From positions 1 to 17,270 of the forward strand of contig JANPJS010000015.1 in assembly GCA_031425655.1 (NCBI GenBank): a DNA stretch of 17,270 nucleotides, written 5' to 3'. Below, one piece after another: positions 1-13,955 of the stretch. Below the pieces are notes generated by a model. It worked only from the letters and a program-made list of their open reading frames with translations. It did no database searches and was not told the DNA's origin. The translations under genes were made by a program, and so were the position numbers. Source of the DNA: Abditibacteriaceae bacterium. GTDB taxonomy: Bacteria > Armatimonadota > Abditibacteriia > Abditibacteriales > Abditibacteriaceae. The stretch's first letter is position 1; the number at the start of each line of letters is the position of its first letter.

Positions 1-152
1 AACGCGCCAAAGGCTTGTCGTCCACCGCCGCTTTGTGTGCCGTCGCGCGTAAACTGGCCCGCTTGTGTTGGTCGCTGGTCACCCACGGCACAACCTACGA
101 CCCAAACCGCGTTTATCAACAAAATCCCCAAAACCAGTGGCTAACCCCTTGA
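1..152 (+). CDS. IS110-family transposase/recombinase, C-terminal fragment (5' part lies outside the window)
   Basis: Frame 3 from nt 3 translates to RAKGLSSTAALCAVARKLARLCWSLVTHGTTYDPNRVYQQNPQNQWLTP* (TGA 150-152). The segment 'ALxAVARKLxRxxWxL...YDP' is the typical C-terminus of IS110 transposases. It is absent from the ORF track because there is no start codon in the window. Confidence 0.88.
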   Translation, partial: RAKGLSSTAALCAVARKLARLCWSLVTHGTTYDPNRVYQQNPQNQWLTP

Positions 153-169
153 CTTCAACCATAGAATCT
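1..169 (+). mobile_element. Right end of an IS110-group insertion sequence
   Basis: The transposase stop overlaps TTGACT (149-154, a -35 box) and is followed by ATAGAAT-CT (161-169). This resembles the IS621 donor end ACAGTAT-CT with a CT core. The right non-coding end is very short, and there are no long terminal inverted repeats. Confidence 0.78.
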
Positions 170-179
170 CTGGGCAGGA

Positions 180-192
180 CTCAGAATGACAC
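180..192. repeat. Half of a REP-like repeat (ctcagaatgacac) flanking the IS110 end
   Basis: Matches ctcaggatgacac at 13899-13911 at 12/13 positions; that copy is the arm of a perfect REP-like palindrome. Confidence 0.5.
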
Positions 193-9589: not shown

Positions 9590-9691
9590 CAAACACAAAG
9601 CACACAAAGGTTTTCACAAAGCACACAAAAGAGAAATAACTCATATCTCGTTTTGTGTGCTTTGTGAAAACCTTTGTGTGCTTTGTGTTTG
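9590..9691. repeat. Perfect 41-bp inverted repeat built from CACAAAG subunits
   Basis: caaacacaaagcacacaaaggttttcacaaagcacacaaaa (9590-9630) is the exact reverse complement of 9651-9691, with a 20-nt spacer. Confidence 0.95.
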
Positions 9692-10457: not shown

Positions 10458-11915
10458 TCAAATTTGCTGTTGCTGAACAATACAACCCTCAGCGAAAACC
10501 AATTTGTGCGTCAGAAAATCGGGAAAATCGGCTTCGTGGTGGCTGACGAATAAAAAGTGCGTGCCGCGCGCGGCACATTCGACAAAACGCGCTGTTAGAA
10601 ACTCGCGCGCGGCTTCATCAAGGCCGTCGAACGGCTCGTCTAAAATCAAAAGCGGCGGCTGATAAACGAGCGCGCGGGCCAAAAGTATCTTGCGCGCCTC
10701 GCCGGTTGAAAGCCCTTGAAACGGGCGCTCGGCCAAGTGTGAAATCTCCAGCCAATCGAGTAATTCATCAACGCGTGCGGCTTGCTCGTCGCTCATTCGT
10801 TCAATCAAACCCAAACCGACGCTGTGGAAAAAGCCGGAAAAAACCGCTTCGCGCGCTGTGACTTGCTCGTGGTATTTAGCTTGATATTCGTGCGAGACGA
10901 AGCCGATTTTCTCGCGCAATTTCCACAAACCCTCGAAACTCGTCTTGCCGAAGCGATGCACACTTCCGCCGCGTGCGGGCCACAATTCGGCGCTCAGCAG
11001 CTTCAAAAACGTGCTTTTTCCGCTGCCGTTGGCGCCCGAAATCGCCCAGTGCTGGCCCGGCTTCATTTCCCAGTTGATGTCGCGCAAAATCAGTTTTTCA
11101 TCGAGAATCACGTTGGCGCGCTGCACGCGCAGCAGGAACGGCAATTTTGAGTTTTGAGTTTTGAGTTTTGAGTTGAAAAGACGATGAGGTCGGGGAGCAG
11201 GAAGCGCGAGTTCTTCGCTGCGTGCAAAGATGCCAAGCACTTTGCCTTCGTGCAAGTGCAGCACGTTTTGCAGGCAGGGCACGACTTCCTCGCGCCGATG
11301 CGTGCTGCAAACCAGTTGTGTGCCGCTTTGCGCCAGCGTTTCCAGAAAATCGAGCATGGCGCGGCGCGAAAGCGCGTCCAAACCGGCGCAAAACTCATCG
11401 AGAATCAAGACTTTTGGTCGGGAAAGCAGCGCGCGGGCGATAAGCAGGCGGCGCAATTCGCCCTGTGAGATTTGCTGGATACTCGCGTCGAGCAGGCCGC
11501 TGAGATTCAAATGGCGCGCGATGTCTTCGGCTTGATCGCACTGTTCGGCGTTTGGCGAATGATGCAGCAATTCGCTATCGAAAAAGCCGGTGTGCAGCAG
11601 CTTTCGTCCGCTTAATTCCCATTCCTGCCGCCAATATTTCGCTTGATGCTCAAACGAAATAAGAGCAATATTTTCCTTCGCGCGAAATGGGCTAAAAGTT
11701 GGGGCGCCGTCGAAAAAATAAGTGCGAGAGCCGCTATTGTGGTCGGGCCAGAGGTCGCCGCGCAAAATTTTCAATAAGGTGCTTTTGCCGGCGCCGTTGC
11801 CGCCTAAAACGGCCCAGTTTTCGCCGGTTTGCAGCGTCCACGAAATGTCGTCCAAGATGCGTTGCTCGCCGCGCGTCACGGCGATGTTTTCGAGTTGAAT
11901 CAGAACTTCAGGCAC
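10458..11915 (-). CDS. ModF-like ABC ATPase with two nucleotide-binding domains
   Basis: GTG start. NBD1: GGNGAGKST / ISQGE / VLILDE / STH. NBD2: GANGSGKST / LSTGE / LLILDEP / VSHH. No transmembrane segments and no adjacent permease. Confidence 0.88.
   Translation of the reverse strand: MPEVLIQLENIAVTRGEQRILDDISWTLQTGENWAVLGGNGAGKSTLLKILRGDLWPDHNSGSRTYFFDGAPTFSPFRAKENIALISFEHQAKYWRQEWELSGRKLLHTGFFDSELLHHSPNAEQCDQAEDIARHLNLSGLLDASIQQISQGELRRLLIARALLSRPKVLILDEFCAGLDALSRRAMLDFLETLAQSGTQLVCSTHRREEVVPCLQNVLHLHEGKVLGIFARSEELALPAPRPHRLFNSKLKTQNSKLPFLLRVQRANVILDEKLILRDINWEMKPGQHWAISGANGSGKSTFLKLLSAELWPARGGSVHRFGKTSFEGLWKLREKIGFVSHEYQAKYHEQVTAREAVFSGFFHSVGLGLIERMSDEQAARVDELLDWLEISHLAERPFQGLSTGEARKILLARALVYQPPLLILDEPFDGLDEAAREFLTARFVECAARGTHFLFVSHHEADFPDFLTHKLVFAEGCIVQQQQI
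11145..11172. repeat. Heptamer tandem repeat (TTTTGAG)x4 in the inter-domain linker of the ABC ATPase
   Basis: Four exact copies; they encode part of NSKLKTQNSKL on the minus strand. Confidence 0.92.
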
Positions 11916-11963
11916 GAGGTAATTTAACCCGAAAACAAAACGGTCCGCGAAATTGTCGGTAGT

Positions 11964-12083
11964 CCCGATTGAAATCGAGGTCTATCGTTACGAAGTCCCC
12001 TGCCCAGAGGGCGCCCGGCGCGGACTGAGAGTAGAGCCGGCGCAGGCCGGCTTGGTCGCCATAGCTCTCGATTCCAATCTGGG
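11964..12083. repeat. Branched palindromic (REPIN-like) element with the same architecture as 331-449
   Basis: Imperfect outer arms cccgattgaaatcgaggtctat (11964-11985) / atagctctcgattccaatctggg (12061-12083). Inner stems agtcc...ggact (11994-12026) and agccggc-gcag-gccggct (12035-12052). Confidence 0.7.
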
Positions 12084-12089
12084 GGTATG

Positions 12090-12124
12090 AAAACAAAACG
12101 GCCCGCGAAAATTTTCGCGGGCCG
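12090..12124 (-). terminator. Intrinsic terminator of amtB
   Basis: Palindrome cggcccgcgaaaa/ttttcgcgggccg (12099-12124) is followed on the minus strand by ttttgtttt, 17 nt after the amtB stop. Confidence 0.85.
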
Positions 12125-13785: not shown

Positions 13786-13955
13786 AAGAATCAGTTTGAA
13801 AAGTCTGATAAAGACCATGATAAAGAAGAGCTTGGTCATCCTGAGCTTGCGAAGGATATCAGCCTGATCGAACTCATTACGCCGAGATCCTTCGCAAGCT
13901 CAGGATGACACTCCGCTTACTTTCGGCGGTGATTCAACTTTTCAAACTGATTCTT
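13786..13955. mobile_element. 170-bp MITE-like element with perfect 19-bp terminal inverted repeats
   Basis: aagaatcagtttgaaaagt (13786-13804) / acttttcaaactgattctt (13937-13955). No ORF inside and no clear target duplication. Confidence 0.65.
13835..13909. repeat. REP-like doublet (gtcatcctgag family) nested in the 170-bp element
   Basis: Perfect 23-bp inverted repeat gtcatcctgagcttgcgaaggat (13835-13857) / atccttcgcaagctcaggatgac (13887-13909) with a 29-nt spacer. Confidence 0.9.

Follow-up and report, generated by a model that had tools for sequence, protein, structure and literature searches.

The first 17,270 nucleotides (nt) of contig C15 (JANPJS010000015.1) of an Abditibacteriaceae bacterium, referred to here as the window, begin inside a mobile element: positions 1-167 are the right end of an IS110-group, IS621-like insertion sequence (IS). 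The genome of the window (G000) consists of 5.98 Mb in 327 contigs. The target of the element is a hairpin segment of 19-20 nt that is present in many unrelated repeats and in some genes. That the element is directed at this segment is evident from the junction sequences, the match of the guides, the covariation of guides with targets, and the copy number. We consider it likely that this is a standard bridge-RNA IS110 element whose guides are fixed on an insert that resembles small dispersed repeats (SDRs) and spreads independently of the element, moved by a single-strand or RNA-templated replacement.

The repeated motif at the junctions of the element

Positions 168-178 (CTCTGGGCAGG), which directly follow the IS, are identical to the reverse complement of positions 11,999-12,009; the minus strand at the latter site reads ccgggcgcc-CT-ctgggcagg-ggact. 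From this match, which is exact in the letters of the window, the initial annotation proposed an empty target of the element 12 kb away. Within the window alone, the match is modestly above chance: the 11-mer with up to one mismatch occurs at these two places only, against 0.19 expected, and 4 of 200 shuffled sequences also reach two matches. Genome-wide it is not due to chance. The genome contains the 11-mer 198 times, where an order-4 Markov model predicts 3.5, and it contains GGGYGCCCTCTGGG 221 times against about 0.11 expected; position 4 of the latter is C in 119 copies, T in 102, and never A or G. The notion that the 11-nt match is accidental and the site no target can draw on the shuffled windows, but it is already refuted by these counts and by the IS junctions (19 of 19), which match the motif as both guides do, and we give it practically no credence.

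Two details of the proposal fare less well. The gapped extension of the match to 'ggact' does exist, yet it is incidental, as the two sites sit in different host repeat families. The empty site does lie in a host repeat, but its distance from the IS has no meaning, since about 300 sites are equivalent to it and the IS copy is in a different host repeat. Nearness was therefore rejected as evidence; the empty paralog most similar to the window copy is on contig C2.

The assembly contains ten right ends of the element (two sequence subtypes, five each) and nine left ends, all at contig breaks. All ten right ends read CATAGAAT-CT-CTGGGC(A/G)G, and so carry the right half of the motif. All nine left ends read GGGYGCC-CT-TGTATGG (position 4: 7 T, 2 C), which is the left flank, (cc)ggg[c/t]gccCT, that had been predicted. 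The motif halves are spread over at least five host repeat families, and each of the 19 junctions has a context that is found elsewhere as an empty motif site. The empty paralog on C2 matches the right flank in the window at 59 of 60 bases and the left flank on contig C189 at 44 of 45; the window copy, broken by the assembly inside the IS, most likely joins C189 (left flank GGGTGCC-CT). Occupied sites in this genome lean towards perfect matches to the guides (T at position 4 in 7 of 9, C at position 10 in 10 of 10), a bias that is not significant (p 0.06 and 0.09).

In the contigs of run X1, a 1250-nt piece ending at window position 178 has a depth of 120.5 against 11.3 for unique DNA (~10.7x). 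This is in line with about ten copies; the run is possibly the source sample, so it lends no independent support. No joint of right end to left end was found for this element in the X1 contigs, while such junctions are assembled for the relatives L115, L128 and L158. An IS remnant at C64:20254-20290 (L005) retains the left flank and the first ~23 nt of the left end and then passes into the host repeat through a shared GGTGGTGAGG; it is a deletion by microhomology.

The recombinase gene is represented in the window by its 3' end (1-152, plus strand; frame 3-149, stop codon TGA at 150-152), which was aligned with full-length relatives, the remainder being lost at the contig break. A longer copy of the same gene end on contig C101 matches PF02371, the C-terminal domain (E 2.7e-16). 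The N-terminal DEDD domain, PF01548, is not in the assembled part of the element and is seen in a relative with identical guides (G125). A search of the genome found only two other IS110 genes. The right end of the IS proper (155-167, plus strand), identical in 10 of 10 right ends, combines a 9-nt sub-terminal repeat, TCAACCATA (155-163), which is the inverse of TATGGTTGA in the left end, with the left-donor arm ATAGAAT (161-167). It is followed on the same strand by the CT core (168-169), which is CT at 10/10 right and 9/9 left junctions, and by the right half of the interrupted insert (170-179). This half comprises the right-target arm CTGGG (170-174) and the tail CAGGA, and is complementary to the guide CCCAGAG at 7/7 positions including the core. 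The adjoining host-repeat arm (180-191, plus strand) belongs to the AGATTCTTC...CTCAGAATGACA family, which has 25 motif-bearing sites; its motif-less twins read CGCAAGCT.

A -35 hexamer, TTGACT (149-154, plus strand), would lie 17 nt from a TATGGT of the left end across the computed circle junction, and TTGACT-17-TATGGT may act as a promoter across this predicted junction. In IS621, a promoter formed across the circle junction has been described (PMC11208160). The IS1111 group is defined by a long non-coding region downstream of the gene and by 7/3-bp ends outside 11-13-bp inverted repeats (PMC11187229). Its traits are absent here, where the right end lies 15 nt past the stop codon and the guides lie upstream of the gene. 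The element is an addition to the known IS110 group, with natural guides that can be read from the sequence.

Guides and their targets

The left end contains GGGTGCCCT and, 40 nt on, CCCAGAG, which match the target at 9/9 and 7/7 positions and have the same orientation as the guides of IS621 (PMC11208160). In a consensus fold of 25 left ends, the guides lie on two sides of one internal loop. When the left end is folded as a single sequence, the two guide regions pair up, a result of the target itself being a hairpin. Left and right target guides in the left-end RNA had been anticipated by the initial annotation, and its central idea, an element programmed against a short repeated motif, is borne out by the 19 junctions, the two guides and the over-representation of the motif.

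Guides covary with targets across the relatives, as seen in the 45 loci that could be parsed by anchors out of 123 related loci plus G000. The match to the own guide is 5.0 of 7 positions for left arms against 3.06 when permuted (maximum 4.19; n=21 distinct guide sets), and 6.67 of 7 for right arms against 4.39 (maximum 5.17; n=24), although the guide sets are related to one another and the permuted comparisons are thus not independent trials. In G125, ten complete copies with both ends on one contig all lie in the motif and carry the same guides; the right halves read CTCTGGG in six, CTTTGGG in three and CTCCGGG in one. Two loci, L139 and L192, have the guide CCCAAAG and an adjoining target CT-TTGGG, and the element of G107 has a shifted guide and uses a second CT. 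Wobble pairing (U.G or G.T) would explain the tolerance of C at position 4 and of T at position 10; neither PMC11208160 nor PMC11208158 uses the word 'wobble'. Candidates for the donor loop are AGAATC and CAAG segments conserved in relatives; the G000 left end breaks before the second, and alifold gave no donor loop.

A tree of C-terminal fragments (80 rows over 116 columns, rooted at the midpoint; neither L149 nor L192 is among its rows) places the 11 motif-targeting rows in one subclade with support 97/93. This subclade also holds a long-branch row, L092, with a different target. Convergent targeting of the motif by unrelated IS110s is not supported, as the motif-targeting rows group together. 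The targets of sister elements with different guides are native repeat sequence and have no insert-type tail. A sister IS110 subclade in metagenome loci L115-L138 targets CGACCGC-CT-ACAGC in a AACAAGGCGCTGCACCCGACCGC repeat, which we take from its looks to be attC-like.

The empty site

The proposed empty target is an intact 20-nt mini-insert, C-GGGCGCCCTCTGGGC-AGG-G, on the minus strand at 11,998-12,017, where it replaces AGGCG of the host repeat for a net gain of 15 nt. It consists of the left-target arm GGGCGCC (12,010-12,016), with the C variant at position 4, a CT at 12,008-12,009 in the same register as at occupied junctions, and the right-target arm CTGGG (12,003-12,007), placed by sequence and guide match. 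The CT was rightly called an unoccupied core, because the guides match and the C-variant left arm is also present at 2 of the 9 left flanks that are occupied. The genome has some 280 empty sites of the form GGGYGCC-CT-YTGGG.

The surrounding host repeat (11,963-12,056, minus strand, limits approximate) resembles repetitive extragenic palindromes (REPs) and belongs to the GTCCGCG..GACTTCGT..GACCYCGATTTCAATCGGG family. Ten members of this GTCCGCG..GACTT repeat bear the motif, and about 60 motif-less strand matches are found among the matches listed in the genome. The motif-less members read GTCCGCG[C/A]AGGCGGACTT, with AGGCG where the 20-nt segment would be. An imperfect direct repeat of 21 nt (11,932-11,952 and 12,090-12,110; half of a terminator-like hairpin) flanks the host repeat, and may be the footprint of its insertion.

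The mini-insert and its replacement rule

The general form of the insert is C-GGGYGCCC-NNN-GGGC-(A)GG-N. In G000, 304 sites of the form GGGYGCCC-NNN-GGGY fall, by a loose rule, in 89 flank clusters with unrelated flanks, and a motif-less twin was found for 90 of the 224 flank contexts. Contexts with an AGG tail gain a net 15 nt in 61 of 71 cases, and those with a GG tail a net 14 nt in 12 of 19. In the former 61, the base before the insert is always C (the twin has C in 28) and the 3' edge base of the twin is always G; many of these contexts come from the same repeat families, and 61 is not a count of events. Motif-less twins and orthologues establish the simplest rule: NNNNG (~5 nt) is replaced by C-GGGYGCCCTYTGGGC-(A)GG-N. 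Apparent exceptions, with a net gain of +12 or +13, come from G240 and G107, where the call was made by eye and without twins. The initial annotation had assumed a repeated extragenic target like those of other IS110 elements. The hundreds of copies agree with this, but the target is not a REP-family repeat; it is a small segment placed in many unrelated repeats and genes.

Given that the GCCC-NNN-GGGC stem is kept while the loop varies, and that most copies are intergenic, often in both arms of an inverted pair, the motif might be a selected host signal. It would then be a protein-binding or RNA hairpin site, spread by gene conversion, which the IS targets as IS621 targets REPs. We regard this as improbable. 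Gene conversion is disfavoured because it needs flanking homology, yet the 304 sites in 89 clusters have unrelated flanks. Transposase genes and a tRNA gene are broken by the insert, five residues are added to a tyrosyl-tRNA synthetase (TyrRS), and counts range from 0 to 302 within one family. No compensatory change in the stem was counted, and loop variants without the CT core exist (GAA, AAT).

The motif was also considered as a tRNA anticodon arm, and this was rejected since no paired covariation was seen between the variable positions 4 and 16. No other large element with motif ends was seen: among the matches listed of the 153 GGGYGCCCT sites that lack a following CTGGG, the recurrent continuations are motif variants and the IS left end. 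By inspection, rather than by genome-wide search, a second insert family was noticed, GGG(C/A)ACCCGC-TT-GCGGGT(C/G)GG (alias GGG(C/A)ACCCGCTTGCGGGT(C/G)GG), with 18 copies in G000, the same build and partly the same sites. Its members (e.g., C27:8171 and C145:2592) have CT at the start of the loop. At four motif sites in G000 (C25 ~8796, C86 ~7672, C258 ~21942 and C170 ~13365), the flanks appear by eye to come from different repeat families or collapsed arms, which suggests recombination at the motif or mis-assembly.

Several inserts lie within genes. The TyrRS gene of G000 has 15 additional nt in frame, adding five residues, compared with three same-genus orthologues, and two Calx-beta repeats carry the insert in frame. 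A gene for tRNA-Arg(UCG) in a cluster of seven tRNA genes in 800 bp (L320, contig C61) is interrupted. So are an IS1 gene and a gene that we take from its motif to be of ISAs1 type (Pfam gives DDE_Tnp_1), the latter at an HWV[LF] position that is also the site of insertion in G107. Pfam gave no match for the short C281 and C302 fragments, whose naming rests on other comparisons. Among the relatives, the insert breaks two genes, presumably of the IS3 family, at the same HS-x-LGY position, as well as Y1 genes and IS110 genes (L151, L067), one of which is of its own targeting lineage.

Distribution and origin of the insert

The motif is present in 24 of 27 genomes of the family, with at least ten copies in 17, and its number varies from 0 to 302. 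An IS right end joined to the motif is found in 2 of the 27. No IS-motif junction was found in G033 (1 contig, 40 motifs) or G072 (3 contigs, 61 motifs). Across a sample of its own phylum, Armatimonadota, 64 of 201 genomes have a motif match. The same applies to 26 of 151 genomes sampled from Chloroflexota, three of which have 65, 17 and 13 copies; seven IS110 loci from five motif-bearing Chloroflexota genomes have no motif halves at their ends. This distribution suggests that the spread of the insert needs no presence of this IS. Absence from a draft genome may be loss or collapse, and the distribution therefore only lowers the probability of a role for IS110 in making the motif. On viral contigs, 54 stretches match a 16-nt pattern; many are probably due to chance and they were not used. 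In two of the viral contigs (L244, L257), the anticodon arm of a phage tRNA-like gene matches the motif, which may be chance.

An IS110 origin of the insert would mean that the recombinase and its RNA write their own target. One-sided, half-match or direct-transfer reactions would seed the left and right target arms, replacing ~5 nt, and loss of the IS would leave a scar of 19-20 nt. Half-match, one-sided or direct-transfer reactions of IS110 have been reported (10.64898/2026.08.31.748434; 10.1101/2025.10.25.684509), and the motif is little more than the two target arms and the core plus a few bases. The motif and the IS lineage also share their host range in Armatimonadota. The sole G107 copy with motif halves lies inside an ISAs1-type gene, and the RNA bases adjacent to the guides are like the insert edges. 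However, the motif is abundant where no IS junction was found (24 of 27 genomes against 2 of 27), and some loop variants are without the core. The G000 guide has no counterpart for the invariant C after TGGG or for the C at position 4. Sister elements whose guides differ hit native repeats that have no such tail, the 19 of 19 junctions in G000 lie in contexts also seen as empty motif sites, and the motif breaks IS110 genes of its own and other lineages (L151, L067). Moreover, CT-core recombination is not known to yield a fixed replacement of NNNNG. We consider self-writing unlikely. Were it true, SDR-like elements would have their missing mover, and the IS would be the first transposon to manufacture its own landing pads.

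Among enzymes, Y1/RAYT transposases were considered as the mover and rejected; G000 holds six Y1 genes, and Y1 counts do not correlate with motif counts (rho 0.29, p 0.14, n=27).

The reading that we prefer remains a bridge-RNA element with guides fixed on an independently spreading insert. A promoter across the circle junction would drive the left-end RNA, whose target loop (GGGUGCCCU, CCCAGAG) would pair with GGGYGCC-CT-YTGGG, and the element would insert at the CT core by recombination; circle formation and RNA expression are likewise predicted steps. The insert, for its part, replaces a ~5-nt NNNNG segment. The mover is most likely a single-strand or RNA-templated replacement that acts on exposed DNA (repeated, hairpin or transposing), and amplification of the repeats would multiply each founder. 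With guides fixed on a spreading insert, one IS110 lineage would have a supply of landing sites that is renewed, mostly harmless and found in different bacterial lineages.

A number of points weigh against this reading. Recombination, RNA and circle of this element are predictions from sequence, and the element is incompletely assembled, its DEDD domain and right donor guide being seen only in relatives. Both the 224 contexts and the permuted guide sets are interrelated, and the counts therefore overstate independence. Where the IS is absent from other genomes, it may have been lost, or the assembly may have collapsed. In G000, the motif variants found most often are precisely the ones that the guides tolerate, and the conserved RNA bases beside the guides resemble the insert edges (C before, GG after), which under independence would be coincidence or adaptation. 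Guide pairings that wobble would allow, four G to A changes at positions 1, 2, 3 and 5, are rarely seen. Finally, no mover enzyme was found, the Y1 counts being without relation to the motif counts in the 27 family genomes.

Relation to known systems

The element shares several features with IS621 of Escherichia coli (PMC11208160, PMC11208158): a CT core, a long non-coding left end with the target loop before the donor loop (here a candidate), a left guide that has the sense of the top target strand and a right guide complementary to that strand, a circle-junction promoter (here predicted), and a repeated intergenic target. It differs in that the right guide has 7 complementary bases, as opposed to 4 bp in native IS621 (10.64898/2026.08.31.748434), and in that a 9-bp inverted repeat flanks the donor arms. 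Its target is a small insert common to many unrelated repeats and genes, and not one REP family.

Insertion in repeated hairpin-forming intergenic sequences, often in inverted pairs, is also known for ISPpu10 and ISPpu9 of Pseudomonas putida and for ISPa11, all of the IS110/IS1111 family (10.64898/2026.03.19.712850; 10.1101/2025.01.17.633520; PMC11187229). In ISPpu10, a 5' stem-loop pairs with the left target, whereas here the hairpin forms from the two target arms, left and right, on either side of the core. ISPa11 is of the IS1111 type with its RNA downstream, unlike the present element.

The insert itself recalls the SDRs. Elements SDR1-8 of Nostoc, reportedly described by Elhai et al. in 2008, are said to be very short (21-27 nt), to bear hairpins and to occur in repeats, mobile elements and conserved genes. 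We know of no mover of SDRs or other very small elements reported since then. The present insert is like an SDR in that it is scattered over unrelated repeats, mobile elements and conserved genes, has empty counterparts and bears a conserved hairpin. It is unlike one in its length of 19-20 nt (net 14-15), its occurrence in Armatimonadota and Chloroflexota, its replacement of NNNNG, and its role as the programmed target of an IS110 lineage.

The SDRs of Nostoc are treated second-hand in PMC5861425 and PMC3116915; according to the former, SDR5 has a specific insertion site (HIP1) and SDRs are reported only in Nostocaceae. Several host repeats that bear the insert resemble CGTC/TGTC-tagged and other palindromic dimers, similar to REP/REPIN and CGTC repeats (PMC3116915, PMC3733652). 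Unlike those repeats, the insert has no GTAG or CGTC tag, is nested inside such repeats, and does not follow Y1 transposases in abundance.

The motif was not found in the full texts searched, nor in the readable supplements of PMC11208160 and PMC11187229; most subscription papers and bioRxiv supplements were outside this search. The literature search, again with most subscription papers outside it, found no paper that joins IS110 with small dispersed repeats. What sets this element apart from described cases is its target, a segment of 19-20 nt, itself mobile, crossing phyla, and with a sharp replacement rule. With this rule, a dated insertion (in TyrRS) and sites that recur in transposase genes, the movement of very small elements becomes testable. 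An IS110 lineage locked on the insert would amount to nested parasitism, one selfish element using copies of a much smaller one as landing pads, and it provides a natural recombinase whose right guide spans 7 bases and which has about 280 endogenous sites.

Other features of the window

Positions 330-450 hold an inverted repeat pair with 52-nt arms, which belongs to the GTCCACGAAGGTGGAC...TTGCCGCGAATTTATTCGCC family but lacks the motif; the insert is present in other members of that family. At 9,590-9,691 there is a perfect 41-nt inverted repeat and at 13,835-13,909 a CGTC/TGTC-type palindrome, both without insert. In the minus-strand ABC gene at 10,458-11,915, heptamer repeats lie in frame at 11,145-11,172 (KLKTQNSKL), between the two ATPase halves.
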